From contig JBKOZJ010000193.1 of assembly GCA_046725875.1 (NCBI GenBank), positions 1 through 36,920 on the forward strand: a stretch of 36,920 nucleotides of DNA. The letters run 5' to 3'. A program made the position numbers and the translations under genes. Numbering within the stretch: position 1 is the stretch's first letter; every line of letters begins with the position of its first letter. Below are positions 988-36,920 of the stretch, in pieces. This DNA comes from Actinomycetota bacterium (GTDB taxonomy: Bacteria; Actinomycetota; Actinomycetes; JAKEEW01). The notes beneath the pieces were generated by a model. That model saw only the letters and a list, made by a program, of their open reading frames with translations. It was not told the origin of the DNA and searched no databases.

Positions 988-1097
988 TGTCGACCCTCCC
1001 GGCGGATGCCTGGCACCAGGCAACTCTCTACGCTTGGTTCGTGCCTTCCGTCCCGACCGAGCCGACCTCGGCCGCATCAGCTCTAGCTGCCGACGCC

Positions 1098-2072
1098 ATG
1101 GTGCGGAACGAGACAGTCGCCATCAGCCCAGCACCCGGCCGAGCGGCCGCTGCCACGGGCGCCGTCGCCCCGGCATCGGAAGTCCGCGCCGCGTCGGCCC
1201 GGACGCGACGGGTGTTCCTGGCCGGGATCATCGCCCAGATCGGGATCGTGATCACCGGGGGGCTGGTCCGGCTCACGGCGTCCGGGCTCGGCTGCCCCGA
1301 GTGGCCGCAGTGTTCCTCGGATTCGCTCGTGCCACGCGCGGAGACCGGCTATCACCAATACGTCGAGTTCGGCAATCGCATGCTCACCGGGGTCGTCGCC
1401 GTCGTGGCGCTCGCCTGCGTCGTCGCGGCCTGGCGGCACCGGCCGCGCCGCCGCTCATTGGTCGCTCTCGCGTCGGTGCTGCTCGGCGGTGTGGCGACGC
1501 AGGCCGTGCTCGGCGGAATTACGGTCCTGACGGAGCTGCATCCGGCGACCGTGGCGGCACACTTCCTGGTCTCGATGACGCTGGTCGCGTTCGCCGTCGC
1601 GTTGTACGAGCGTTCCGGAGAAGGTGACGCCGCACCGATCTCGCTGGTCCGTAATGAGGCAAAGATGCTCGGTTATGGCTTGCTGGCCACCGTTTCCACG
1701 GTGCTCGTACTCGGCACGGTGGTGACCGGAAGCGGCCCGCACTCGGGCGACGCGGAGGACACCGCTCGGTTCGGCTTCGATCCGCGCACCGTCGCGTGGC
1801 TACACGCCGACCTGGTGTGGCTGTTCATGGGCCTCGTCGTCGCGATGGTCGTGCTGCTACGCGCGACCGACGCTCCGCCCCTGGCGAGGCATCGAGCACT
1901 TGTCGTTCTGGCGATCGCACTTGCCCAAGGCGCAATCGGTTACTTCCAATATTGGACCGACCTGCCGGTCGCCGCCGTTGCCCTCCACATGCTCGGCGCT
2001 TCGCTCCTCATGGCCGCCGTCATCCGCCTGATCTACGCGCTGCGCACCCGGCCCTTGGCGGCGACCGGCTAG
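1098..2072 (+). CDS. ctaA: Heme A synthase (COX15/CtaA family)
   Basis: GGLVRLTASGLGCPEWPQC, EFGNR, AHF, GSGPHSGD, LH motifs, about 8 TM; start uncertain (1041 or 1098). Confidence 0.92.
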   Translation: MVRNETVAISPAPGRAAAATGAVAPASEVRAASARTRRVFLAGIIAQIGIVITGGLVRLTASGLGCPEWPQCSSDSLVPRAETGYHQYVEFGNRMLTGVVAVVALACVVAAWRHRPRRRSLVALASVLLGGVATQAVLGGITVLTELHPATVAAHFLVSMTLVAFAVALYERSGEGDAAPISLVRNEAKMLGYGLLATVSTVLVLGTVVTGSGPHSGDAEDTARFGFDPRTVAWLHADLVWLFMGLVVAMVVLLRATDAPPLARHRALVVLAIALAQGAIGYFQYWTDLPVAAVALHMLGASLLMAAVIRLIYALRTRPLAATG

Positions 2073-2745: not shown

Positions 2746-3756
2746 TTAGCGGAGGACGGCGTCGATCGCGACGGTCACGAAGAGGAGGGCGAGGTAGCTG
2801 TTCGACCAGTGGAACAACCGCATCGGCCGGAGCGAAACACCTGCCGCCCCCGCCCGCGCCCGCCCGTACAGACGATGCGCCTCGACCAGGAAGACCGACC
2901 CGAGCGCCGACGCGACTACGACATAGACCGTGCCCGTCCCGGCAATCGGCCACAGCGCCAGGGAACAAGCGACCATCACCCAGCTGTAGAACACGATCTG
3001 CCGCGTGACTGAGCGCTCGGTCGCAACGACCGGCAGCATCGGCACCTTTGCCACCGCGTAGTCGTCCCGGTAGCGCAGCGCGAGCGCCCAGAAGTGCGGA
3101 GGCGTCCAGAAAAATACGACCAGGAAGAGCACCACCGGCGCCCACGCCAGCGACCCGGTGATCGCCGTCCAGCCGATAAGCGTCGGAAAGCACCCGGCGG
3201 CCCCGCCCCACACGATGTTCTGCGAGGTGCGCCGCTTCAGCACGATTGAGTAGCCGACCACATAGAAAACGTTCGCGGCGAGTGCGAGCCACGCGGACAA
3301 CCAGTTGACCGCGAAGCCGAGCCACACCGTCGCCGCGGCCCCGAGGCTGACGCCGAACACCAGCGCCGCACGCGGGCTGACCACGTGCGCTGGCAGCGGG
3401 CGGCGGCGGGTGCGGCGCATCGCCTCGTCGATATCCCGGTCGATCACGCAGTTGAGGGTGTTGGCGCTGCCGGCCGCCAGGGTTCCGCCGACTAGGGTCG
3501 CGAAGACCGGAGGCAGCGGCGGGACTCCCCCGGCCGCCAGGAACATCACCGGCACCGTCGTAACCAGCAGCAGCTCGATGATCCGTGGCTTGGTCAGCGC
3601 GACATAGGCCCGGACGAGCGAACCAAGGGTTCGACGGCTACTCGAGTCACCGGGGCCGGGCGGGCGGCGCGCCGCCGGCAGATCCATTTCCGCCGGCGCG
3701 CCATCCGGCCGCGCAACAACCGGTCGCGACCGACGCGAGGTCGACAGAACGGACAC
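2746..3756 (-). CDS. ctaB: Heme O synthase (protoheme IX farnesyltransferase)
   Basis: [43 protein letters not shown] motifs; divergent from tkt. Confidence 0.95.
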
Positions 3757-3882: not shown

Positions 3883-5976
3883 GTGACTGCCGAGACAACC
3901 CTGAACTGGACAGACGTCGATCGGCGGGCCGTCGACACGGTCCGGACCCTCGCCATGGACGCGGTAGAGAAGGCCGGCTCGGGTCACCCCGGCACGGCGA
4001 TGAGCCTTGCTCCAGCGGCTTATCTGCTATTCCAGCGCCTCCTCCGGCATGACCCGACCGACGCCAGCTGGCTGGGGCGCGACCGGTTCGTCCTGTCCGC
4101 CGGGCATACGAGCCTGACGCTGTACATCCAGCTCTACTTCTCGGGCTACGGACTGCGGCTGGACGACCTGAAGGCGCTGCGGCAGTGGGGCAGCCTGACG
4201 CCCGGCCATCCGGAGTACGGGCACACGCTCGGCGTCGAGACCACGACCGGGCCGCTCGGGCAGGGTTTCGGCAACGCGGTCGGCATGGCGATGGCAGCCC
4301 GGCGCATACGCGGTCTGTTCGATCCGGATGCCGAGCCAGGGGCGAGCCCGTTCGACCACACCATCTGGACCTTTGCAAGCGACGGCGACATCGAGGAAGG
4401 CGTCAGCTCGGAGTCGGCCTCGCTCGCCGGCCACCAGCGGCTGTCCAACCTCGTCGTCCTCTATGACGACAACCACATCTCGATCGACGGCAATACGAAC
4501 GTCGCGCTGTCCGAAGACGTGCTCGCCCGGTTCGCCGGCTACGGCTGGCACACCCAGCGGGTCGATGACGCCGAGGACGTCCATGCCCTGTTCGACGCGT
4601 TCATCACGGCGCGCGATGTCACCGACCGACCGGCCATCATCGCGGTTCGGTCGGTCATTGCCTGGCCGGCGCCGCACGCGCAGAACACGGGCAAGGCGCA
4701 TGGTGCCGCTCTCGGCGCCGCGGAGGTCGCGGCGACCAAGCGGGTCCTGGGCCTTGACCCGGACACGACCTTCGCAGTGCCTGACGACGTGCTCGATCAC
4801 GTACGGAAGGTCGCGCAGCGCGGCCGGGCGCTCCACGCCGAGTGGGACAAGACGTATACCCGGTGGCGGGAGGCGAACCCAGAGCGCGCGGCGGATCTCG
4901 ACCGCATCCTCGCCCGCAAGGTGCCCGAAGGATGGGCCGCGAAGCTGCCGGAGTTCGAGGCCGGCACAGCGGTCGCCACCCGCAAAGCGTCCGGAAAGGT
5001 GCTGACCGCGATCGCCCCGGTGCTGCCCGAACTCTTCGGTGGATCCGCCGACCTGCACGAGTCGAACAACACATACATCGAGGGTGAGTCGTCCTTCCTC
5101 CGGTCGGAGGCCGGAGCGGACAACTCCAGCCCGTACGGAAGGAACATCCACTTCGGCGTCCGCGAGCATGCGATGGGCGCGACGATGAACGGGATGGCGC
5201 TCTACAAGCTGCGCCCCTACGGGGGCACCTTTCTGATCTTCAGCGACTACATGCGCCCGGCAGTGCGGCTCGCCGCGCTGATGAAGTTGCCGACCATCTA
5301 TGTCTGGACGCACGATTCGATCGGGCTCGGCGAAGACGGCCCGACCCATCAGCCGATCGAGCAGCTGTGGGCGCTGCGCGCGATCCCCGGGCTCGACGTG
5401 GTCCGGCCGGCCGACGCCAACGAGACGGCGGTCGCCTGGCGGACCGTCCTCGAGCACACCGACCGACCCGCCGGCATCTGCCTGACCAGGCAGAACCTGC
5501 CGACCTTCGACCGGTCGCCCGGGACTGGGTTCGCCTCCGCCGAATGCATGGCTCGCGGCGGATATGTACTGGTCGAGGCGAGCACGGGCCAGCCGTCGGC
5601 GATCCTCATCGCCACCGGGAGCGAGGTCTCGATCGCGGTCGAGGCGCGGGAAAGGCTGGAAGCCGAGGGGCTGCCGACCCGAGTGGTCTCGATGCCCTGC
5701 GTGGAGTGGTTCGAGGCCCAGGAGCATGCATACCGGCAGTCGGTGTTGCCACCCGATGTGCGGGTACGGGTCTCGGTCGAGGCGGGCGTCGCCCAGGGTT
5801 GGGCGAAGTACGTCGGCGACGCCGGCGAGAGCCTCAGCCTCGAGCACTACGGTGCGTCGGCACCCTACGCGGTGCTTTATGAGCAGTTCGGCCTGACGCC
5901 GGACCGGGTCGTCGCGGCGGTACGGTCCAGCCTCTCGAAGATCGGTGCGACGAAGGGGTCGACGACCGGGAACTGA
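3883..5976 (+). CDS. tkt: Transketolase
   Basis: [24 protein letters not shown] ThDP motif, [16 protein letters not shown]; start set at GTG 3883. Confidence 0.97.
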
Positions 5977-25670: not shown

Positions 25671-26201
25671 CTATGCGAGCAGGATCTCGCCGCGCGTCAC
25701 GGTGATCATCCTCTCGGGCAGCGGCGTTGGCGCAGGCCCGCCTTCCACGGAGCCGTCCGTGATGCTGTAACGGCTGCCGTGGCACGCGCAGCGGATGAGC
25801 CCTTCATCAACGCTCGAGACAAGACACGCCTGGTGAGTGCAGATCGCGCTGAAGCACTTGAAGTCACCCGTCCTGGGCTGGGTGACGACGACCTTCTCGG
25901 CATTGAAGATGCGGCCGCCCCCGACCGGGATGTCTGCCGCTTTAGCTAGGGGCTCACCACCGGTGGACGGTGAAGTCTCCGACGAAGATGGGGACGCCGG
26001 AGGTGTTGTCGCGTTCCGGGAGCCGTTCGTCGCCGCCGCGTGGCCGGCTGAGTCGTCACCACCGCATGCCGCGAGCACCCCGCCGCTTGCCACCACACCG
26101 GCGGCGGCGAGCCCCCGCAGTATCTGGCGCCGGGACGGCGGCGCTTCGTCTGTCCCCGTTGGGAGCCGTGAGCCGAGATGAGCCTTGATCGCTTCAGGCA
26201 T
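25671..26201 (-). CDS. Tat-exported Rieske [2Fe-2S] lipoprotein
   Basis: SRRQIL Tat motif, LAAC lipobox, CTHQAC and CACHGSRY Rieske boxes, GPA.PL. Confidence 0.9.
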
Positions 26202-27657: not shown

Positions 27658-28245
27658 TCAACTGAACTGTGTGTCGCCCGCGCTCACGCCGATCCGGGAG
27701 AGCCCGTCCCTGAGGTGCTCGGCGGTCAACTCGCCGAACCAGCGGTCGACGATCCGTCCGGACGCGTCGACCACAAGCGTGTCCGGAATCCCCTGCAGCC
27801 CAATCCGGGACGCGAACGTCCCCGCCTCGTCGAATACCTGGGGATAGGTCACCTTCGAAGCGGCGAGAAAGCGAAGCGCGGCGCTGCGGCTGTCGCGCGA
27901 GTCGACTCCGAGGAAGAGGACGCGATCGCCAACCGCGCGGTTTGCCGCCTCGAGCAGCCGGGCCTCCCGACGGCATGGTGCACACCATGACGCCCAAAAG
28001 TTGATGACTTCGGGACGACCGTGCACCGCGGCCGCGGAGACCTCGTTCTGCGGGCTGGCCAGGCAGGGCAACATCGTCGTCTTGACTCCGATGATCGGCC
28101 TTCCCGCCCCGGTCGGGCAGGCACCAAGAACCGGGGCATTCCGGGTCGCGATGGACTGATCCGAGGAACCACCACACGCGGCCGCGACGAGAACCAGCAT
28201 GGCAGCTGCGCACCATCGTCGAGACCAAGGAGTGATCCGCGTCAT
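27658..28245 (-). CDS. TlpA/ResA-like thiol-disulfide oxidoreductase lipoprotein
   Basis: Lipobox AAAC, NFWASWCAPCRRE, FLGVD, YP..FD, GIP.T. Confidence 0.9.
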   Translation of the reverse strand: MTRITPWSRRWCAAAMLVLVAAACGGSSDQSIATRNAPVLGACPTGAGRPIIGVKTTMLPCLASPQNEVSAAAVHGRPEVINFWASWCAPCRREARLLEAANRAVGDRVLFLGVDSRDSRSAALRFLAASKVTYPQVFDEAGTFASRIGLQGIPDTLVVDASGRIVDRWFGELTAEHLRDGLSRIGVSAGDTQFS

Positions 28246-28300
28246 AGTTCACCTCGGTGCGGCAATGAACTAAAATTGCTGGTCAGGTCGGTTCCGGAGG

Positions 28301-28987
28301 TTGCACAAGAAGATTGCAGTGGCTGGTAACCGCGTTCTTGCCATCGACGACGAGCCGCGCGTGGTCGATTTCGTCTCGCGTGCTCTCCGCGGCGAGGGCA
28401 TCGACGTCGACACGGCCACGACCGGCGAGGACGGGTTTCGACTCGCGGTCTCGCGCTCCTACGACGTCATCGTTCTCGACCTGTTGATGCCGGGAACGGA
28501 CGGCGTCTCGGTCCTGCACCGCATCCTGCGTCGCAAGCCCGACCAGTCGGTCATCGTCCTCTCTTGCCTTACCGACACGACCTCCAAGGTCCGTTGCCTG
28601 GAGATAGGCGCCGACGACTACCTGGGCAAACCGTTCGCCCTGGACGAGCTCCTTGCCCGGGTGAAGGCGCGAATGCGGGACAAAGCGCCCGCCAACCCGC
28701 AGACCCTGGTGGCGCGCGGGCTGGTGCTGGACCCGGTGCGGCAGGAAGCAAACGGCGGATCCGGACCCATCCCGCTGACCAGGCGCGAATCGATGCTGTT
28801 GGCGGAGCTCATGCGTAACGCCGGCCAGGCGGTTTCCAAGGAGCGCCTGCTCTCGACCGTGTGGGGATACAGTTTCGGCCCAGGATCGAACGTCGTCGAT
28901 GTGTACGTGCGACGGCTGCGCGCGAAGCTCGGATTGGATGCCGTCGTGACCGTACGCGGCACGGGCTACGGGGTGGACATTGATTAG
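28301..28987 (+). CDS. OmpR/PhoB-family response regulator
   Basis: IDDE, VLDLLMP phospho-Asp, GADDYLGKPF, winged helix NVVDVYV.RLR.KL, TVRG.GY; start may be GTG 28319. Confidence 0.93.
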   Translation: MHKKIAVAGNRVLAIDDEPRVVDFVSRALRGEGIDVDTATTGEDGFRLAVSRSYDVIVLDLLMPGTDGVSVLHRILRRKPDQSVIVLSCLTDTTSKVRCLEIGADDYLGKPFALDELLARVKARMRDKAPANPQTLVARGLVLDPVRQEANGGSGPIPLTRRESMLLAELMRNAGQAVSKERLLSTVWGYSFGPGSNVVDVYVRRLRAKLGLDAVVTVRGTGYGVDID

Positions 28988-30062
28988 GCGGTGGCCTGCA
29001 CTCGCGCGGCGGTACTGGGTCGAGCTGGTCTGGTGTCTCTTCGTGCTGGCCAATACCGGCGCGATCCTGATCTTTCGCGACTGGGCCACGGTGCCGTTCC
29101 ACTTCATCTGGATCGGGCTGTCACTGCTCTACGGATGGCGCGTCTGGGGTCTGCGCGCCACCATCTGGGCGCTCGTCACGGTGATAGCGCTCACGGCAGC
29201 CGCGTTGACCATCGACGTGGCGGTGGACGACCAGGCGCCCGACGAGCTGACCGAGATCCCGCTGATGGCCACCGTGTTCGTGGTCATGGTTTGGTACGTC
29301 CGGCGCAACATCGCCGCCAAGGAGGAGATCCGCCGGGTCTCGGAGCACAACCTCGCGCTGCTGCAGCAGGAGCGCCACTTCATCGAAGACGCCTCGCACG
29401 TGCTGCGTACGCCGCTCACGGTCGCCCTGGGACATGCAGAGCTTATTTCGCGAACGACGGGCGACCCGATGACCGCCCATGACTCGAAGGTCATCGTCGA
29501 CGAGCTGAAGCGGCTGAAGAGCGTCTCCGACCGGCTTCTAGAGCTTGCCGCGACAGAGCAGCCGGACTTCGTGCACCCGGTCGAGACATCGATCCGCGAC
29601 CTGATCACGGACGCGCACTCGCGCTGGTCGGCAACCAACCCGGCAGTGGAGTTCGGCCGAGTCGTCAACGCGTCCCTGCCCCTCGACCCGGCCCGGATCC
29701 GGGACGCGCTGGACGAACTGATCGGCAACGCCGTCGGACATTCACCGCCGGGAACCCCGGTCAAGCTGTCGGCGCGGCGGCAGGACGGCACCGTGGTGGT
29801 GGCGGTGGCAGACCGCGGGCCGGGGATCACGCCGAGCGAGCAGGCTCGGATCTTCGACCGGTTCTCCCGCGTCGACGGGGCCGATCGACGCAACGGGTTC
29901 GGCCTCGGGCTGGCCATCGTGAAGGCCATCGCGGAGGCGCACGGTGGCTCCGTGGACGTGCGCAGCGAGCCGGGCCGCGGCACCACCTTCGAGCTGCGGC
30001 TGCCGATGGCCGGCCAGGAGCATGAGAGCCGGCAGCTCCAGCCGGCGCCGTCGCGCCGGTAG
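28980..30062 (+). CDS. Sensor histidine kinase with 4-TM intramembrane sensor
   Basis: Four short TM segments, H-box ASHVLRTPL, N-box LIGNAV, DRGPGI, GFGLGL, HGG. Confidence 0.92.
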   Translation: MIRRWPALARRYWVELVWCLFVLANTGAILIFRDWATVPFHFIWIGLSLLYGWRVWGLRATIWALVTVIALTAAALTIDVAVDDQAPDELTEIPLMATVFVVMVWYVRRNIAAKEEIRRVSEHNLALLQQERHFIEDASHVLRTPLTVALGHAELISRTTGDPMTAHDSKVIVDELKRLKSVSDRLLELAATEQPDFVHPVETSIRDLITDAHSRWSATNPAVEFGRVVNASLPLDPARIRDALDELIGNAVGHSPPGTPVKLSARRQDGTVVVAVADRGPGITPSEQARIFDRFSRVDGADRRNGFGLGLAIVKAIAEAHGGSVDVRSEPGRGTTFELRLPMAGQEHESRQLQPAPSRR

Positions 30063-30192
30063 GGTTCCTCCTGGCGCATTCGGGCAGACGACGGCCCGAT
30101 CAAGCGCAGCGGCGGCCGCGGCCGCACCGGCCTTCGGGCGCCGGCCGGGTCTCGGTTCGTCGTACAGGTCGACGACATCCCCCTGCTCCCGC

Positions 30193-32253
30193 TCACCCGT
30201 CGTCCGGATGAGGCATATCGACCGGTTGGTCGAAGGCGTGGTAGCGATCGTCCATGAAATGAGTGGGTGCCCACATCTGAGACCTCAGCACTCGGCCGGT
30301 GGCCCGATCGATCCACAACGTGAACCAGACGGTCTCCGGGTTGTCGCCATGCCCGCCGAAGAACGACACGCGGGTCACTGGGACACCGCCAAGCGACCGA
30401 TGCTCTACGACATGGGCATTGACGAACGGCTCGAACGGGGTCCACGCGAAATACGGCACTGGAACGAGCGCGCCCTCCGACCGTAGTTTCCACGGCGCCC
30501 CAGGACTACTGCGCACGTAGACCTTGGACCCGAGCCACAGTGTGTCCTGCGGACCGTCGCCGAACCACGTCCGCAGCCACATGGCGTGCGGCCGGGCGTA
30601 AACATAAGCACTTCTGATGCCGGAGAGCACCTCGTTCACGCGGTAGCTGTGCACGCGATCCATCTGAGCGGTCGCCCGTTCCAGGAGCGCCGTACCATCC
30701 GGGGCGGGCAGCCTCGGAAGGACAAACGCAGCCGTCCCGCCGCCGTCTCCCGCCACCGCCACCCCTACGCGCTCGCCGCCGCGCAGGTCGACAGGGACGG
30801 TCCAGCAGGACGGCCCGCATGCCACAAACGGATACGAGCGACCGCGGACCGACAGCCGGACATCCCCGAGGCCAGCCGGTGACGGGGCGATGTAGGCATA
30901 CACCTGGTTCGAACCTGGGCGACCAGGACGCACGGTGAGGCCCACCATCGTGTCGCCCGCCCGCCCGCCGATCGAGTAGTCCCCCGGCCGCGGGAACGGA
31001 GACATCTCGGCGGCTCCGGCCGTCGCCTCGCGGGACTCCTCGGCCTCACCGGCCTCCCTAGGCACCACCGGGAAGGCAGCGAGCGCCGCGGCCGCGGCCA
31101 CGACGACCAGCGCGACGACCGCCTCGCCTCGCACCATCACCCGCAGCCGCCGCCAGGCGAGAAAAGACAGCGGGATCATGGCGGCGACGGCGAGGCCTTT
31201 CGCGAGGAGGGTTAGGCCGTATGCAGTACTGAGCACCTCGCCGGGCCCGCCCAGCAGCTGGGCGGCCTGCACTACTCCCAGACCCACCGAGATCCCGAAC
31301 GCCCATGGCGCGACCGTCGAGAACCGGGGCAGCAACGCCCGGCCCACGGTCGGCCAGCCGCCGGTCACGCGCACGAACGCCAGGGCCATGATGCCGCCGG
31401 CCCATACTCCGGCGGCGGCGAGATGAGCGGCGTTGACGGCCATCCCGGCCCACGCCGGTTCGACGTTGGCGGCGTGGCCGGCCACGGCGACCGCGCCCAC
31501 AACACCGGTAAGGAGGACCGGTGACAGGCGCCCCCGCACAAGGGCAATGATCAGGATGCACAGTTCGAGTCCGATCCGAGCGACCCGGGCCCAGCCGGTG
31601 ACACCGATCGTCAGGTAGTCCCGTAGTCCAGACATGGACAAGCCGGACGTGGCCACCGCCGCCTCCGCGAGGACCACGGTCGTGCCGCCGATCAGAAGCG
31701 CGGTCGCGACGGGAACGGCGGGGGGACGCATCGGGATCTCGGGTCCGAGCCGGCGCAGTACCACGAGTCCGCAAGCCAGCAGCAGCACGGCGTACTCGAT
31801 CGCGCGGGCAGCTGCGGTAAGCCCGTCGCCACGCGAGGGTTGGGGTGAGCCGCCCGTGGCCGCAGCGCCGGCCGGCACCCCGACGCCGAACCGGAATGCG
31901 CCGGTGATCGTATGTCCGTCGACATGGCTCACCGTCGTCCACTCGACCCGATAGACGCCGGGCGCGTTGGTCGACAGCGGCACCCGGATCGTCGCGCCGG
32001 AGACCGAGTCCTGGAAGCGGCGACCGGTCGGGTCGACGACGGTGGCGTGCGAGAGCCGGGCCACAAGGGGCTCGTCGAAGGTCAAGACGACGACCCCGGG
32101 CGTCGCTCCCAGCGTCGCACCCGCGGCCGGGCTCGAGGAGACGAGGATCGCGTGCGCCTCGGCCGGGGTCGGGATGATCAGGAGCCACCCCACGCCGATA
32201 ATGCAGCACGCTAGACGCAGCGACCACCGTGTGCCGCGCCGAGCCGATCGCAT
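30193..32253 (-). CDS. CopC-CopD fusion copper uptake/resistance protein with extra C-terminal extracellular domains
   Basis: Signal peptide AEA|HA.LVSSSP, DGH CopC motif, CopD GHA and HL.AA.VW.GG, YG..L..K, then about 270 soluble residues. Confidence 0.88.
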   Translation of the reverse strand: MRSARRGTRWSLRLACCIIGVGWLLIIPTPAEAHAILVSSSPAAGATLGATPGVVVLTFDEPLVARLSHATVVDPTGRRFQDSVSGATIRVPLSTNAPGVYRVEWTTVSHVDGHTITGAFRFGVGVPAGAAATGGSPQPSRGDGLTAAARAIEYAVLLLACGLVVLRRLGPEIPMRPPAVPVATALLIGGTTVVLAEAAVATSGLSMSGLRDYLTIGVTGWARVARIGLELCILIIALVRGRLSPVLLTGVVGAVAVAGHAANVEPAWAGMAVNAAHLAAAGVWAGGIMALAFVRVTGGWPTVGRALLPRFSTVAPWAFGISVGLGVVQAAQLLGGPGEVLSTAYGLTLLAKGLAVAAMIPLSFLAWRRLRVMVRGEAVVALVVVAAAAALAAFPVVPREAGEAEESREATAGAAEMSPFPRPGDYSIGGRAGDTMVGLTVRPGRPGSNQVYAYIAPSPAGLGDVRLSVRGRSYPFVACGPSCWTVPVDLRGGERVGVAVAGDGGGTAAFVLPRLPAPDGTALLERATAQMDRVHSYRVNEVLSGIRSAYVYARPHAMWLRTWFGDGPQDTLWLGSKVYVRSSPGAPWKLRSEGALVPVPYFAWTPFEPFVNAHVVEHRSLGGVPVTRVSFFGGHGDNPETVWFTLWIDRATGRVLRSQMWAPTHFMDDRYHAFDQPVDMPHPDDG

Positions 32254-32254
32254 C

Positions 32255-32479
32255 TCAGCGCATCGCGATGGCCAGAATCGCCAGCCCGGCCAGGACCACC
32301 AGGACCGTGATGAACACGGTCGCGTGGTATTGCGTCCGGCTCGGCTCGGGCAATCCGGCGGGGTTGCAGTCTTTGCAGACCGACCGGCCCCATGCCGTCG
32401 GCTTGCCGCAACGGACGCACTGGTCGAATGAGCGCATCGTGACTGCCGCCCTTCCCGGGGCCGCCTGCCGTTCAGGCAT
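32255..32479 (-). CDS. Small membrane-anchored CxxC-x10-CxxC metal-binding protein (hypothetical)
   Basis: CVRC..CKDC followed by NP.GL..P..TQYH and a C-terminal TM helix; ATG 32479 overlaps the ctaF-like stop, own stop abuts copCD start; alternative start 32437. Confidence 0.7.
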   Translation of the reverse strand: MPERQAAPGRAAVTMRSFDQCVRCGKPTAWGRSVCKDCNPAGLPEPSRTQYHATVFITVLVVLAGLAILAIAMR

Positions 32480-32921
32480 GATGCGGTCCACCTGCGAGGT
32501 CCGGGCTCTCCTCATGCGGCTCGGCCTCATCATGATGCCGCCATTGCTGGCGGACGTCGAGGATCCAGCCGATGCCCGCGGCGATGAAGAGCGCACCGCC
32601 GCCGACGAGCGCCCAAAGCGGCCCAACGGCCCCGACGACCAGGCCGATCGTGGCGAGGGCGATCACCAGCGGCCAGATGGTCGGACCGACATGGGGTTCG
32701 GCGTCCGGGCCACCTAGTGGCACCGCGGCGGCCTCCGCGGCGAGGGCGACCCGGGCCCGATGCACGGCAGAGACCAGGTAGGCGCCGACGAGAAGCGCAC
32801 CCCCAGCCACGATGAGCATCAGCGTAGTGCCCTCCCACTCGTAGGTAACCGCGCCGTAGATCACGCCGGTGACGAGGAGGAATCCGCCGAAGCCGAAGAT
32901 GATCCTCGAGAACAAGTTCAT
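32472..32921 (-). CDS. ctaF: Cytochrome c oxidase subunit IV (actinobacterial CtaF-like)
   Basis: 4 TM, Y....EWEGT and P.IWP motifs; GGAGG RBS before ATG 32921; operon position. Confidence 0.75.
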   Translation of the reverse strand: MNLFSRIIFGFGGFLLVTGVIYGAVTYEWEGTTLMLIVAGGALLVGAYLVSAVHRARVALAAEAAAVPLGGPDAEPHVGPTIWPLVIALATIGLVVGAVGPLWALVGGGALFIAAGIGWILDVRQQWRHHDEAEPHEESPDLAGGPHHA

Positions 32922-32972
32922 GGGCAGCCACCTCCGCTCGGCCAATGCCGGGAGCGACCCAAGGCACCCATA

Positions 32973-33581
32973 TCAGCCGGCCGGCGCCAAGTAGAGGATC
33001 AGGTAGATCGCGACGCCGAGGGCGACGACGAAATACCAATAGATACCCGCGGCCTGCACCGGATCTCGTTGCAGCGCCAGCTCACCGGCCCAGGCGCGGA
33101 CGAGGACCAGGGACAGCAGCACTACTCCGCCCACCACATGGGCCAGCTCCAGTCCCGTGATCGTGTAGAACAGGGATTCGTAGATCCCCTCCCCCACGCC
33201 GAATCCCAGCCCCTGGTAGCCGGCCGCCAGGAGGGCAACAAAGGCCACCGCACAGGCCACCGTCACACCGAGCCAGGGCATCATCCCGCGCGGGTAGTCG
33301 GGTCGACGGATCTTGCGCAGCACCCGAGACATGGAGACACCGCTGAGGAGCAGCACGACGGCCGCGATTGTCGGCTGCGCGAGCGCAGGTCCGGTGGCGC
33401 CGGCCGGCGGCCAGACATCCGCCTCCGTGTACGCCGTCATGTAGATGCCGAAGAACGCCGCGAAGAACACCCCTTCGGAGGCCACGAAGATGGTCATTGC
33501 GGTTACCGGACTGCCCGCATTTCGTACGGCCCGCCGGTCCAGCAGCTCGGGCGATGGCGCGGCGCCAGACTGGGTGCTCAT
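32973..33581 (-). CDS. ctaE: Heme-copper oxidase subunit III (divergent)
   Basis: F.ASE..FF..FF, WPP, LL.S, FY..TGL..AHV..G, YW.FV; ATGA overlap with subunit I. Confidence 0.85.
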   Translation of the reverse strand: MSTQSGAAPSPELLDRRAVRNAGSPVTAMTIFVASEGVFFAAFFGIYMTAYTEADVWPPAGATGPALAQPTIAAVVLLLSGVSMSRVLRKIRRPDYPRGMMPWLGVTVACAVAFVALLAAGYQGLGFGVGEGIYESLFYTITGLELAHVVGGVVLLSLVLVRAWAGELALQRDPVQAAGIYWYFVVALGVAIYLILYLAPAG

Positions 33582-35212
33582 GCCGTCACCCCTGACTCGG
33601 CAGTGGTGCTCAGCCGCAGGTCACGGACCGGTCGTTCGGACCTGATCTCGGGGAGTCTTTCAAAGTTGTAGGGAGGCGGTGGCGAAGTCGTAGCCCACTC
33701 CAGCGTGTTGCCCTGCCATGGATCGGCCGGTGCGGTGCGCGGCCTTCGCAGGGTTATGACGAGATTGGCCAGCGCGACCAGCATCCCCAAAGCGATGATG
33801 AAGGCGCCGATGGTCGCAACCACGTTGAGTGTCGTCCATCCCGCATCGCTGGGATAGAACGCGACCCGGCGCGGCATGCCCTGCAGGCCCAGGTAGTGCA
33901 TTGGGAAGAACGTCAAGTTGAACCCGATGAACTGGAGCCAGAAGTGCGCGTAACCCAGCCGCCGGTCGAGGTAGCGGCCGGTTATCTTCGGGAACCAGTA
34001 GTACATCGCGGCCATGATCGCGAAGAGGCTGCCGCCGAACAGCACGTAGTGAATGTGCGCGACGACGAAATACGTGTCGTGGATCGCGTAGTCCATCGCC
34101 GGGGAAGCCATCCACACGCCGTCGATCCCGCCGATCAGGAAGAGCGCGACGAACCCGAGCGCGAAGAGCATCGGCGGCTCGAACCGGAGCTTCCCCCGCC
34201 ACATGGTGAACAGCCAGTTCAGGAACAGCACGCCGGTCGGCACGGAGATTACCTCCGTGGTCACGGAGAAGAACGAATCATCGACGAGGCCGGTGGTGTA
34301 CATGTGATGGCCCCACACGGTGAACGACAGGGCTACCACGAGCATCAGGGCGAGAATGACTCCGCGATAGCCGAACAGCGGCTTGCCGCTGAATACCGGG
34401 ATGATCTCGGAGACGATTCCCCAGGCGCCCATGATGAGCATGTAGACCTCGGGGTGCCCGAAGAACCAGAACGTGTTCAGGTAGTTGAACACGCTGCCGC
34501 CGTGGGCTGGATCGAGGAAGACGGTTCCGAGGTGGCGGTCGGCGAACAGGATTATGAGCACCGCCGTCAGGGCCGGGACCGCCAGCACCACCAGGATCGA
34601 GGTGCTTAGCGTCGCCCAGGTGAAGATTGGTACCCGCGTCATGCTCATTCCCGGCGCCCGCATCCGGAGCACCGTCACGATGAAGTTGATCGCGCCGAGC
34701 AGTGAGCTGGTTCCCACCACCAGCAGGCCCAGGATCCAAAGATCCTGCCCGGTTCCCTCCTGCAGCGCGAGCGGCACGTAATTCGTCCAGCCGGCCGCGG
34801 CCGGGCCGTCCTTGGTGAGATATCCGGCGAGGATCGTGAGTCCACCAACGGGCAGCAGCCAGAACGACAACGCGTTTATCCGGGGGAAGGCCATGTCGAG
34901 CGCGCCGATCTGCAGCGGCACGAAGTAGTTGCCGAAGCCGGACAGCAGCGGGAGTATCACGAGGAAGATCATGATCGTCCCGTGCATGGTGAAGGTCTCG
35001 TTGTACGCCTGCGGCGAGAGAACCGTGTTGTCCGGTTGCGCCAGCTGCGTCCGGATCACCATCGCCAGAGCGCCGGCGATGGCGAAGAACGCGAACGAAT
35101 TGAAGAGGTACAGTATTCCGATCTTCTTGTGATCGGTGGTCGTCAACCAGGCGAGTGCCCGCGCGGGGCGCGGCTGCGGTGCCCGTGCCGGCGCCCGAGC
35201 GATTACCGTCAT
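33578..35212 (-). CDS. ctaD: Heme-copper oxidase subunit I, A1-type but lacking the K-pathway lysine
   Basis: TTDHK.IG, H77, D106 (DMAFPRIN), FGHPEVY, WGHHM, HDTYFVVAHIHY, GMPRR; PTGVL in place of PTGVK. Confidence 0.93.
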   Translation of the reverse strand: MTVIARAPARAPQPRPARALAWLTTTDHKKIGILYLFNSFAFFAIAGALAMVIRTQLAQPDNTVLSPQAYNETFTMHGTIMIFLVILPLLSGFGNYFVPLQIGALDMAFPRINALSFWLLPVGGLTILAGYLTKDGPAAAGWTNYVPLALQEGTGQDLWILGLLVVGTSSLLGAINFIVTVLRMRAPGMSMTRVPIFTWATLSTSILVVLAVPALTAVLIILFADRHLGTVFLDPAHGGSVFNYLNTFWFFGHPEVYMLIMGAWGIVSEIIPVFSGKPLFGYRGVILALMLVVALSFTVWGHHMYTTGLVDDSFFSVTTEVISVPTGVLFLNWLFTMWRGKLRFEPPMLFALGFVALFLIGGIDGVWMASPAMDYAIHDTYFVVAHIHYVLFGGSLFAIMAAMYYWFPKITGRYLDRRLGYAHFWLQFIGFNLTFFPMHYLGLQGMPRRVAFYPSDAGWTTLNVVATIGAFIIALGMLVALANLVITLRRPRTAPADPWQGNTLEWATTSPPPPYNFERLPEIRSERPVRDLRLSTTAESGVTA

Positions 35213-35251: not shown

Positions 35252-36349
35252 TTATTTCGCCGGCCCGATGATCAGGGTTCCGCTCATCGCCGGACCGTGG
35301 ATGTCGCATTGGAAGTAGTACCTTCCGGGCTTCAGCGCCGGGACGGTGAAGGTCTTGGTTACTGGTCCGGTGAAGTCCGGCGTGATGTAGAACTGGTGCT
35401 TGGTTTTCGGGCTGTCCCAGATCGCAAAGTTGTGGGCTATCTGGTTGTCCTCATTCTTGATCGTGATTTGGAACGGCTTTCCGGCCAGGACTGCGAGGCA
35501 GTTCTTGTCCCAAGTGATTTGGTGCGCGACCAGCTCTAGGGTCGACCCGGTCGGTTTGCACTCGCCCCCGTGGGCCGCTGCCTTCTTCTGCTGCTCGACC
35601 CAGGAAAGGAACTCCGCCTGGGGCACGACCTTGACTACGAAGGTCATCTGAGCGTGCCATAGCCCGCAGAACTGCGCACACTGGCCGCGATAGGTCCCGA
35701 GCTTTGACGGTGTGACCGTGAAGACGTTCGGGTGCCCTGGTACCGCGTTCTTCATATACAACAGGTCAGGCACGTAGAACTCGTGGATCACATCCGTGGA
35801 TCGAAGCTCGATCCGGGTCGGCGTGTCGACCGGCAACTCCATCATGAGTGGCTGCTTGAGGGTCTTCCCAGTGACCGTGAACTCCTCGTTGACGTAGTTC
35901 GCCGACCACTCCCATTGGAATGCGTTGATCACAAGCCGTTCACCAGGGTTCGGGTCGTTGCGATCGACCCGGGCTACTGCCACCTCCCCGACCGCAAGCA
36001 GCACGATGATGACCGCGAGCGGCCCGGCGAAGAATGCCGCCAGTGCAGTGTTGTTGCCGGCGTGCTGCACCGGCTCGGACTCGTCACCGCGCCGCCTGCG
36101 GAACCGGACCACTGAGATGAGCAGCATGCCCTCGACGAACAGAAACACCGGGAGCGCGAGCCAGAGGACGATGTAGAAGAGTCCGTGCACGGTCTCGGAC
36201 TTCGACGAGATCCCCGGCTTCACGCAGGCGGATGTCAACAGCAGCGACCCGAGGAGGCCTACCATCCGCAGCCGCCGGCTGAAGCCGGTGGCTGCGGAGG
36301 TCGTTGTCCGACGGGTCCGCTCGCGGTAACGCGCGGGCCAACGCATCAT
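35252..36349 (-). CDS. ctaC: Heme-copper oxidase subunit II (CuA) fused to a C-terminal type-1 blue copper domain
   Basis: Lipobox-like LTSAC, 2 TM, QWEW, DVIH, CAQFCGLWHAQM; then AHNF...YYFQCDIHGPAM.G cupredoxin. Confidence 0.9.
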   Translation of the reverse strand: MMRWPARYRERTRRTTTSAATGFSRRLRMVGLLGSLLLTSACVKPGISSKSETVHGLFYIVLWLALPVFLFVEGMLLISVVRFRRRRGDESEPVQHAGNNTALAAFFAGPLAVIIVLLAVGEVAVARVDRNDPNPGERLVINAFQWEWSANYVNEEFTVTGKTLKQPLMMELPVDTPTRIELRSTDVIHEFYVPDLLYMKNAVPGHPNVFTVTPSKLGTYRGQCAQFCGLWHAQMTFVVKVVPQAEFLSWVEQQKKAAAHGGECKPTGSTLELVAHQITWDKNCLAVLAGKPFQITIKNEDNQIAHNFAIWDSPKTKHQFYITPDFTGPVTKTFTVPALKPGRYYFQCDIHGPAMSGTLIIGPAK

Positions 36350-36350
36350 C

Positions 36351-36920
36351 TCAAGAGACCGTGAATCCCTTGACCATGCCGATGGAGGCGTGCACGGGGC
36401 CGGTGCCGCCGCCGGCCTTACCGTCCTCCCAGCAACTGATCACGTAATTGCCGGGCGGCAAGTTGAACGACCCTACGCTGGTTCCGCCGGTGTCGACGTC
36501 GGCGATCTCCCCGAACCCTAGGTAGTCCCCTTCGCCGTCGGGGCCTTTCGCCTTGGCGGAGGCCACCACGTCGTCCGCGGTCTTACCGGCGGGGACGCCG
36601 AGCAGGACCAGCTCGTGGGTGATGTCGAAGGTTTCCTTGTTGGAGAAAACGATGTTGAACGGCTGGTTCGCCGGCACCGTGTCCGGCATGCCCTGATAGG
36701 TGAAGTTGGCCACCGACACCTGGTAGGTCTTCGGGGCGGCAGCACCTTGCGCAGTGGCCGACGAGGATGCGGTGAACGCCTTGACCATGCCGATGGAGGC
36801 GTGCACGGGGCCGGTGCCGCCGCCGGCCTTGCCGTCCTCCCAGCAACTGATCACGTAATTGCCGGCCGGCAGGCTGAAGGTATGCACGCCGGTACCGCCG
36901 GTGTCGACGTCGGCGATCTC
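36351..36920 (-). CDS. Tandem-domain blue copper protein (azurin/auracyanin/sulfocyanin-like), 5' end outside window
   Basis: Frame is open to the window edge; HELV...L.PGNYVISC-x13-H-x4-M; the Cys/His/Met segment occurs twice. Confidence 0.85.
   Translation of the reverse strand, partial: EIADVDTGGTGVHTFSLPAGNYVISCWEDGKAGGGTGPVHASIGMVKAFTASSSATAQGAAAPKTYQVSVANFTYQGMPDTVPANQPFNIVFSNKETFDITHELVLLGVPAGKTADDVVASAKAKGPDGEGDYLGFGEIADVDTGGTSVGSFNLPPGNYVISCWEDGKAGGGTGPVHASIGMVKGFTVS
36368..36920. repeat. Intragenic direct repeat, 411-bp period
   Basis: 36368-36454 matches 36779-36865 with a single mismatch, and similarity continues to the window end. Confidence 0.92.

Follow-up and report, generated by a model that had tools for sequence, protein, structure and literature searches.

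Loss of the K-pathway lysine and gain of a conserved helix VIII glutamate in an aa3-type oxidase of uncultured Actinomycetota

Why A-type haem-copper oxidases need two proton pathways, and what role the K-pathway lysine plays, is an old question that has been studied mostly with crippled mutants. The K362M oxidase of Rhodobacter sphaeroides is nearly inactive as an oxidase and keeps its peroxidase activity, and K362M enzymes fail in the reductive half-cycle with the D pathway intact. The nitric oxide reductase (NOR) of the cNOR type draws its protons from outside. In Actinomycetota, the aa3 oxidase is usually described as being fed only via the bcc supercomplex. The subject of this study is coxI, a gene for a haem-copper oxidase subunit I on contig JBKOZJ010000193.1 of an Actinomycetota bacterium (GenBank assembly GCA_046725875.1); the window denotes the whole stretch of 36,920 nucleotides that was analysed. 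The original prediction, made from the letters of the window alone, had placed a leucine at the site of the K-pathway lysine and proposed a natural enzyme operating with the D pathway only.

Family A oxidases that lack the lysine, retain the D pathway and have a cupredoxin gene upstream of COX2 are already published, and the clade of the window joins this known but little studied kind. As described in 10.1101/2020.03.01.968255, COX1 of acidophilic iron oxidisers and their relatives, including metagenome-assembled genomes (MAGs) of Actinobacteria and Chloroflexi, has hydrophobic residues instead of K354. The D channel is kept, E78 of COX2 is lost and a cupredoxin gene precedes COX2 according to the same description, which also reports the loss of the CuA-motif Glu in COX2 of the proteobacterial iron oxidisers and already prints a D-pathway-only reading for these oxidases. 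The tables of PMC8239418 sort K-channel variants as K, KC, hybrid and modified over about twenty bacterial subclades and, in addition, the archaeal ones, and this source gives seven independent losses in the archaeal tree. The aa3 oxidases of the rus operon and of Aeropyrum are named as terminal oxidases in published tables and references. Genome papers label the archaeal enzymes without the lysine 'D- and K-channel possessing A1', following a classifier.

In the window, the gene and its diagnostic sites are located as follows:

33578..35212, minus strand: CoxI (CtaD-like), haem-copper oxidase subunit I, 544 amino acids, open reading frame with a Pfam COX1 match (E 3e-156)
34226..34228, minus strand: codon CTG of Leu329 at the position of the K-pathway Lys, from the translation and a gapless PDB alignment
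34214..34261, minus strand: helix VIII motif TTEVISVPTGVLFLNW, residues 318-333, holding Glu320 (34253-34255), Ser323 (34244-34246) and Thr326
34418..34456, minus strand: helix VI motif HPEVYMLIMGAWG, residues 253-265, with His253, Glu255 and Tyr257 retained, Pro replaced by Gly262 and Phe/Met by Trp264 (34421-34423)
34358..34360, minus strand: Val285 in helix VII, matched to M316 of R. sphaeroides, which faces K362 over the channel, through its distance of 31 positions from the CuB histidines

The CoxI frame is the sole long open reading frame with a high third-position G+C (0.86) at this locus. Its top match among PDB chains (phmmer) is mycobacterial CtaD, 6adq_F (E 1.6e-177). In the gapless alignment, vptgvLflnw of the query stands over vptgiKffnw and hpevymlimgawg over hpevyiialpffg, which places the predicted leucine exactly on the lysine. 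The translation contains the D-pathway residues N95, D106, N113 and E255 (in GHPEVY) together with Y257, the six His ligands (77, 253, 302, 303, 386 and 388) and, beside Tyr257, the other K-channel residues Ser268 and Thr326. An AlphaFold2 model built on a 58-row alignment reached a predicted local distance difference test (pLDDT) score of 90.4, with unbroken helices 241-275 and 313-337. It superposes on mycobacterial CtaD with a TM-score of 0.94 (Foldseek) and matches A-type oxidases. One of the structural matches is R. sphaeroides K362M (PDB 3om3), which also has a hydrophobic residue at the Lys position of an A1-type enzyme but, unlike the window protein, is a laboratory mutant without compensating changes.

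The best solved relatives of CoxI are the canonical CtaD subunits of bcc-aa3 from Mycobacterium smegmatis (6adq), M. tuberculosis (8hcr) and Corynebacterium glutamicum (7q21), with E values from 1e-177 to 1e-163. They share the 12-helix core, CoxIII and an actinobacterial CoxIV with the window, but carry the lysine (K340 in 6adq) and read LPFFG in helix VI. CoxI scored 673.7 against the cutoff of 670.75 of the NCBIfam model TIGR02891 (CtaD_CoxA). It stayed under the cutoff of the actinobacterial aa3 subunit I model NF050116 (672.9 versus 880), and subunits II and III of the window likewise scored under the NCBI actinobacterial cutoffs (151 versus 250 and 67 versus 190, respectively). Altogether, the protein is shown to be subunit I of a four-subunit aa3-type haem-copper oxidase from a lineage of uncultured, mostly soil-derived Actinomycetota.

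Following Pereira and Sousa, family A is defined by six His ligands with the helix VI Tyr, by the D-channel Asp/Asn with the helix VI Glu for A1 (residue list of Table 2 in PMC3084760), by the K-channel residues and by a subunit II with CuA and the K-entry Glu. CoxI has all of the ligands and this Tyr, unchanged in 119-120 of 120 homologues, and the D channel (N95, D106, N113 and E255 in 120 of 120). From the K-channel set Lys354, Thr351, Ser291 and Tyr280 (Paracoccus denitrificans numbering) it has Tyr257, Ser268 and Thr326, with Leu329 in place of Lys, and subunit II has a CuA motif with Gln for Glu and lacks the K-entry Glu (E78). By its place in the trees, CoxI is a homologue nested within family A, and it fails the K-channel part of the definition. 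Family B enzymes lack the D channel and have a K-analogue with Thr, Ser and Tyr at the K354, T351 and S291 positions; membership is ruled out by the D channel of the window and by its Leu, Thr and Ser at these sites. In the NOR families (cNOR, qNOR and newer NOR), Tyr-I is lost and/or the CuB/FeB site is altered with Glu motifs according to the family descriptions in PMC3084760; they are ruled out by the retained Tyr257 and three CuB His.

With regard to the modified K-channel criteria of Degli Esposti et al., K354 is replaced non-conservatively in the window, COX2 E78 is replaced and the D channel is kept. Read by the table columns of PMC8239418, which omit the Glu320 position, the window is Y S L T N E / G V A S without E78 and thus 'modified', not 'KC'. 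Tables S1 and S3 of that source hold no A1-type actinobacterial subclade without the lysine. The aa3 oxidases of the rus operon (Acidithiobacillus, Acidiferrobacter, Acidihalobacter) and their '2TM' relatives (Acidimicrobiia, Chloroflexi, Alicyclobacillus, Thioclava) were compared by their published descriptions only. By these, they resemble the window in the hydrophobic residue for Lys, the absence of COX2 E78, the retained D channel and HPEVY, the cupredoxin gene before COX2, the gene order 2-1-3-4 and, with respect to the clade, TlpA-like and Caa3_CtaG genes nearby. In contrast to the window, the tables give these subclades one or two additional N-terminal transmembrane helices and L, M or A in place of S291; the actinobacterial forms without the lysine listed there likewise have additional N-terminal helices and no S291. 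The window protein has its first long helix at residues 28-57, has no extra helix and keeps S268 and T326. Furthermore, the rus-operon/'2TM' group is described as the deepest family A branch, whereas the window clade is nested among Lys-bearing Terrabacteria in the trees described below.

Conservation was determined in the best 120 database homologues of CoxI (63-100% identity, the window's own protein counted) and in a genome-locus set of the best 80 loci with one genome per species, to which every locus count refers. Among the 120 homologues, position 329 is Leu in 119 and Met in one, position 264 is Trp throughout, and position 262 is Gly in 84 and Ala in 36, never Pro. The remodelling of helix VI that had been read from HPEVYMLIMGAWG, with Pro lost and Trp gained, is therefore conserved across the clade together with Leu329. 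Likewise, the retention of the D pathway, Tyr257 and the ligands noted for the single protein extends to its relatives: the D-pathway residues, Glu255 and Tyr257 are kept in all 120 and the six His in 119 or 120.

Eighteen of the 80 loci (at least 68% identity, all labelled Actinomycetota) have the Leu, the Trp and the TTE motif. The remaining 62 (at most 63% identity) have K at position 329 in 60 cases, Q in one and a gap in one; they belong to Chloroflexota (49), Acidobacteriota (5), Actinomycetota (5), Pseudomonadota (2) and an unnamed phylum (1). Lys was hence found only in the more distant loci and not in near-identical homologues. The 120 homologues and 18 loci form 138 clade rows, which are partly redundant (near-identical entries) and related and do not represent independent counts; all are Actinomycetota wherever named. 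L329 is present in 137 of the 138, in line with the earlier argument that a sequencing error is unlikely, and E320, W264, Y257, E269 and S296 are present in every one. When the clade rows were compared with 59 others (L026-L028 were omitted as too distant), eight CoxI positions proved fixed in the clade and nearly absent outside: L182, M258, L259, W264, V285, E320, L329 and W367. Lys-bearing rows (n=153) have P262 in 149 cases and W264 in one. Some of the homologues represent clusters of 400-600 member sequences, and the synteny around CoxI is conserved in the 18 clade loci. These alignments confirm the Leu329 substitution as a lineage trait, far beyond chance or sequencing error.

The loss extends to subunit II, for which the following sites are relevant:

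35252..36349, minus strand: CoxII, 365 amino acids, with a lipobox, two transmembrane helices, a CuA domain and a C-terminal cupredoxin (Pfam COX2 6e-15, Cupredoxin_1 7e-17)
36041..36061, minus strand: start of the second transmembrane helix of CoxII, residues 97-103, without the K-entry His and Glu (A97, L103), from alignments to Thermus caa3 and Paracoccus subunit II
35984..35986, minus strand: Glu122 of CoxII, a clade-specific acid near the outer end of the second transmembrane helix
approximately 35255-35557, minus strand: C-terminal type-1 cupredoxin domain of CoxII, with the His in IAHNF followed by CDIHGPAM, standing instead of a cytochrome c domain

According to the residues listed in PMC9687966, the K channel of R. 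sphaeroides is formed by the subunit I residues Y288, S299, T359, K362 and S365 together with H96 and E101 of subunit II, and the M316-K362 distance is used there to gauge the width of the channel. At the M316 equivalent, position 285, V is found in 131 of the 138 clade rows and F or M in the rest; among the 62 other loci, F is found in 55 and M in 4. At the S365 position, N332 of the window, the clade rows have N (75), I (29), C (17) or A (8), while 59 of the 62 others have N, which shows a relaxed constraint on this site below the former Lys at the level of the alignment. In CoxII, two PDB alignments put the K-entry Glu at L103 or A104, in a segment without any acid. Column tallies over the 76 loci with a CuA-bearing open reading frame adjoining CoxI gave an acid in the entry-Glu segment in 0 of 18 clade rows versus 52 of 54 others, and the entry His in 2 of 18 versus 50 of 54; the window's own His is displaced by one residue. 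Given that the lysine is lost in subunit I and the entry Glu and His in subunit II, the aligned positions show the canonical Lys-based K pathway to be dismantled in both subunits, with repacked neighbours (V285, W264 and no Pro262). CoxII Glu122 is E in 18 of 18 clade rows and in 0 of 53 others. By residue count, this membrane-embedded acid lies at about the same depth as Glu320 of CoxI.

Glu320 had been overlooked in the original reading of the helix VIII motif. Located within TTEVISVPTGVLFLNW (TTEVIS), it is E in 138 of 138 clade rows, compared with F, A or M in relatives, and is the only ionisable residue among the eight clade-specific CoxI positions. Ser323 is present in all of the best 120 homologues. 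None of the 153 Lys-bearing rows has E at position 320, and their residue 323 is mostly A (128), less often G (21) and rarely S (4). The two residues sit nine and six positions before the former Lys site. The clade has, on this evidence, fixed a Glu320-Ser323 pair in helix VIII that is predicted to be buried. An equivalence of Ser323 with Ser309 of Thermus ba3 was dropped, as S309 maps to the Thr351 position in PMC3084760 Table 2 and PMC11214002 Dataset S1.

A wider search of 1.84 billion cluster representatives yielded 23,927 matches at E<=0.001, of which the best 150 were used together with the window. In these 151 rows, the Lys position is K in 92, Q in 19, L in 13 and I in 9, the rest being other residues or gaps; Glu occurs at position 320 in 13, all of them without Lys. 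The Glu-bearing representatives with named members are archaeal (Thermoplasmata, Marsarchaeota, Hydrothermarchaeota, Nitrososphaerota and marine Euryarchaeota). In the set of 215 rows used for tree building, no row combines K and E, 134 have K without E, 42 have E without K, and 39 have neither. The frequency of Glu320 is thus 0 of 134 in rows with K and 42 of 81 in rows without it.

A profile search from twelve Glu-bearing representatives collected 120 archaeal CoxI+III proteins, including those of cultured haloarchaea and Caldiarchaeum. None of them has K at the Lys position, which holds M (58), I (46), A (7), L (6) or V (3), and the Glu255 and Tyr257 equivalents are kept in all 120. In 119 of the 120, helix VIII holds exactly one acid, located either at the 320 position (23) or seven residues further on (96); the remaining sequence lacks it. 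These proteins (Thermoplasmata, Marsarchaeota, the Desulfurococcales/Aeropyrum type, Nitrososphaerota and the haloarchaeal second oxidase) therefore resemble the window clade in the missing Lys and in the single helix VIII acid, and they have a Ser at the 323 position; the T-E-x-x-S motif itself occurs in 23 of the 120. Copper partners of the sulfocyanin or halocyanin type also occur among them, and one representative carries a SoxE fusion. They differ from the window by an identity of only 35-50%, the fusion to subunit III, the loss of the S268 and T326 equivalents, the mostly shifted acid and their position in a separate clade. As a separate observation, an archaeal CoxI without the lysine (P0149, 1035 amino acids) has a sulfocyanin domain (PF06525) fused to COX1. 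A Gln at the Lys position together with an altered D-entry Asn was seen in the fused CoxI+III proteins P0139, P0142, P0207 and relatives; their hosts are the cultured Ectopseudomonas mendocina group, Martelella, Hoeflea and Gemmatimonadota, where the proteins are annotated merely as cytochrome c oxidase subunit I.

Trees were built without the trait columns of helix VI (258-265) and helix VIII (316-332), using FastTree on the 215 rows and IQ-TREE (posterior mean site frequency mixture, short search) on 67 hand-picked rows. In both, the window clade is monophyletic (99-100% support) and nested among Lys-bearing sequences of Chloroflexota and Actinomycetota (99-100%), and the archaeal clade without the lysine and a third small Glu-bearing group fall apart from it. 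The nearest branch in both trees consists of Lys-bearing sisters with 55-63% CoxI identity, chiefly MAGs of Chloroflexota (Limnocylindria, for example) with a few from Mycobacteriales. Like the window, these sisters have a CoxII with a C-terminal type-1 cupredoxin. Unlike the window, they have the Lys, Pro262, F or M at 264 and at 285, as well as both entry residues of subunit II (Glu and His), and they lack Glu320. The tree topologies suggest that an acid of the Glu320 type likely recurred independently in separate lineages without the lysine.

With regard to electron input, the CuA motif of CoxII reads CAQFCGLWHAQM, in which the Glu of CxExCG is replaced by Gln. This replacement is found in 9 of 19 clade rows, including the window, versus 2 of 58 others. 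The type-1 copper motif is present in all 19 CoxII sequences of the clade and in 64 of 68 CoxII tails longer than 100 amino acids, mostly from the Lys-bearing sisters (Chloroflexota). Since the cupredoxin-fused CoxII is common to the Lys-bearing sisters, the blue-copper input came first and the loss of the lysine later within the group. A second candidate carrier is encoded directly upstream of CoxII:

36351..36920, minus strand: tandem-cupredoxin protein with a weak Cupredoxin_1 match, cut by the end of the window

In the window, this gene contains a direct repeat of 149 nucleotides (91% identity, spacing 411). A full-length relative in the clade locus L005 (5384-6778) encodes 464 amino acids, comprising a lipobox and three repeats that are nearly identical to one another. 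Its matches are Cupredoxin_1 (5.7e-12) and the archaeal SoxE sulfocyanin family, the latter with 27.3 bits against a cutoff of 21. In the same locus, the opposite strand encodes a Caa3_CtaG assembly factor (4153-5166) upstream of the cupredoxin gene; none was found in the window. The cupredoxin input may replace the cytochrome cc route of bcc-aa3.

We infer that the enzyme of the clade is active, because purifying selection is evident and because relatives without the lysine (rus-operon aa3, Aeropyrum aa3) are listed as terminal oxidases. The interpretation that we place first, with confidence evenly balanced for and against it, is a functional O2 reductase with a 'modified K-channel', in which Glu320 of helix VIII would replace the lysine as a proton donor or by charge compensation. 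Electrons would enter via type-1 copper, that is, via the tandem-cupredoxin lipoprotein and the cupredoxin domain of CoxII, and would pass from there to CuA, haem a and the haem a3-CuB centre. Published descriptions of this 'modified K-channel' kind cover the rus-operon oxidases of iron oxidisers as well as CoxI+III of archaea. The helix VIII carboxylate would make the loss of the lysine tolerable, acting as an internal proton donor or compensating charge during reduction of the binuclear centre, and could be refilled from the D pathway or by another route. A broader idea is that a single buried helix VIII carboxylate allows a family A pump to drop the K-pathway Lys, the entry Glu and the entry His, and that this arose repeatedly in the actinobacterial clade and in archaea; we regard this generalisation as tentative and rather doubtful. 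If it were true, blue-copper-fed oxidases would share a carboxylate-based replacement of the K pathway, and the natural set of changes would be a minimal one for transplant into model oxidases.

Several observations weigh against this role of Glu320. As 39 of the 81 rows without the lysine also lack Glu320, including the Lys-to-Gln forms of Ectopseudomonas, Martelella and Gemmatimonadota, the helix VIII acid is not a general requirement. By helical periodicity, residue 320 points about 180 degrees away from residue 329, and Glu320 therefore need not line the old channel; in addition, the pLDDT of the model drops to 78 at residues 311-320. Forcing the window and archaeal clades together cost 36.6 log-likelihood units with a p value of 0.045 in the approximately unbiased test, a borderline result for a group that was named after the tree had been inspected. 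With only 6 independent pairs, Glu follows the loss of Lys in 2-4 and the opposite is seen in 0 (p 0.125-0.5), so that a correlated evolution of Lys loss and Glu gain is not significant.

The reading that survives best beside this one is that of the original prediction: a strict D-pathway-only enzyme, in which the K region is filled hydrophobically, all chemical and pumped protons travel through D106 to E255, and Glu320 is purely structural. We consider it unlikely, yet a serious contender. The hydrophobic lower part of the K channel in both subunits and the invariance of the D-pathway residues in 120 of 120 homologues are consistent with it, the proteins that do without Glu320 can be cited in its favour, and it agrees with the published view of the related oxidases in 10.1101/2020.03.01.968255. 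The inference was reasonable and had precedent for relatives, and its first half, the loss of the canonical K pathway, holds in both subunits; sole use of the D pathway is its more doubtful half. A strict D-only enzyme leaves unexplained the invariant Glu-Ser pair (138 of 138) and its recurrence solely in lineages without the lysine, as well as the placement of the acid at one of two sites in 119 of 120 archaeal sequences. It also has to face the failure of K362M enzymes in the reductive half-cycle despite their D pathway.

An enzyme that is not mainly a proton-pumping O2 reductase is improbable. It might be peroxidase-like, a low-turnover O2 scavenger, or dependent in the reductive phase on protons from the outer side via Glu122(II) and Glu320. 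The similar membrane depth of the two clade-specific acids, E320(I) and E122(II), as judged by residue count, would fit such a route, and precedents exist in the peroxidase activity kept by K362M and in the outside protons of cNOR. However, the clade keeps the D pathway together with Glu255 and the Tyr, as pumping oxidases do, and the Aeropyrum and rus-operon aa3 relatives are named terminal oxidases in the published tables and references.

Even less probable is a C-family-like 'KC' channel along helix VII in place of the K channel, as proposed in PMC8239418 for several family A oxidases without the lysine. S296 is present in 138 of 138 clade rows, with S in 18 of 62 others, and S288 and S281 occur in 41 and 19 of the 138 clade rows, respectively, which would be in keeping with such a channel. 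Mapped by spacing from the CuB His pair, the equivalents of Vibrio cholerae S240, S244, H247 and Y255 are G281, V285, A288 and S296 in the window, so that only one of the four helix VI/VII positions is polar where the KC channel calls for four. Moreover, a Ser at the fourth position is also listed for Lys-bearing bo3-type rows in Table S3 of PMC8239418. A decaying paralogue or an assembly or sequencing artefact can practically be dismissed, given the intact open reading frame with all ligands kept, 120 homologues (63-100%) from many contigs and sources, the synteny in 18 loci and a change from AAG/AAA to CTG common to the whole clade.

Against this background, we return to the preferred reading of a working oxidase with a helix VIII carboxylate in place of the lysine, and to what the clade offers for its examination. 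The natural enzymes known to lack the lysine, from iron oxidisers and archaea, are very divergent, whereas the window clade lies near Lys-bearing sisters. This closeness makes the question of K-pathway loss testable and, with only eight fixed positions in CoxI, gives a compact list of changes to test, consisting of these eight and a few in subunit II. The present work adds the two-subunit evidence of pathway loss, the pattern of the helix VIII carboxylate and the closeness to Lys-bearing sisters. The clade also points to a blue-copper-fed respiratory branch in soil Actinomycetota, which appears common in environmental data judging by the clusters of 400-600 member sequences.

The genes around the oxidase subunits are the following:

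32973..33581, minus strand: CoxIII, 202 amino acids (Pfam COX3 1e-16)
32472..32945, minus strand: CoxIV of the actinobacterial type, 157 amino acids (Pfam Cyt_c_ox_IV 1e-7)
32255..32626, minus strand: small protein with CxxC...CxxC and a C-terminal transmembrane helix, no family match
30193..32253, minus strand: CopC-CopD fusion, 686 amino acids (Pfam CopC 1e-20, CopD 3e-5)
28980-30062, plus strand: histidine kinase (Pfam), in a pair with the regulator that is convergent with the cox operon
28301-28987, plus strand: OmpR-type response regulator (Pfam); the top NCBIfam match is the heavy-metal (CopR/CusR-like) subfamily, under cutoff
27658..28245, minus strand: TlpA/ResA-like thiol-disulfide oxidoreductase (Pfam Redoxin 1.5e-16; NCBIfam DsbE/ResA/TlpA under cutoffs)
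1041-2072, plus strand: ctaA, haem A synthesis (Pfam COX15-CtaA 2.8e-27)
2746-3756, minus strand: ctaB, haem A synthesis (Pfam UbiA 4e-67)

On the minus strand, the order is cupredoxin gene, CoxII, CoxI, CoxIII, CoxIV, small Cys-rich protein and CopC-CopD, followed by the regulator and kinase on the opposite strand and by the redoxin gene. The small Cys-rich protein probably starts downstream of the CoxIV stop. About 285 amino acids C-terminal to CopD (30193-31050) gave no Pfam match. Two open reading frames on the minus strand, 28283-29107 and 29129-30493, were rejected as conserved genes, as third-position G+C and Pfam identify them as antisense shadows of the regulator and kinase. Searches with tblastn detected CoxII and CoxIII throughout the 18 clade loci. 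The small protein was detected beside the cox genes in 17 of these loci, the gene for the cupredoxin in 16, CoxIV in 15 and the two-component pair, via its antisense shadow, in 14. In 5 of the 18, the cox genes are followed directly by CopC-CopD.

A Rieske protein of 176 amino acids is encoded at 25671-26201, adjoining uvrC. Its gene and the two unassigned open reading frames between it and the redoxin gene had no counterpart in the 18 clade loci by tblastn; none of the three is counted here among the genes of the oxidase system, to which the Rieske gene is probably unrelated. The haem A synthesis genes ctaA and ctaB lie in a typical actinobacterial core region of the window.

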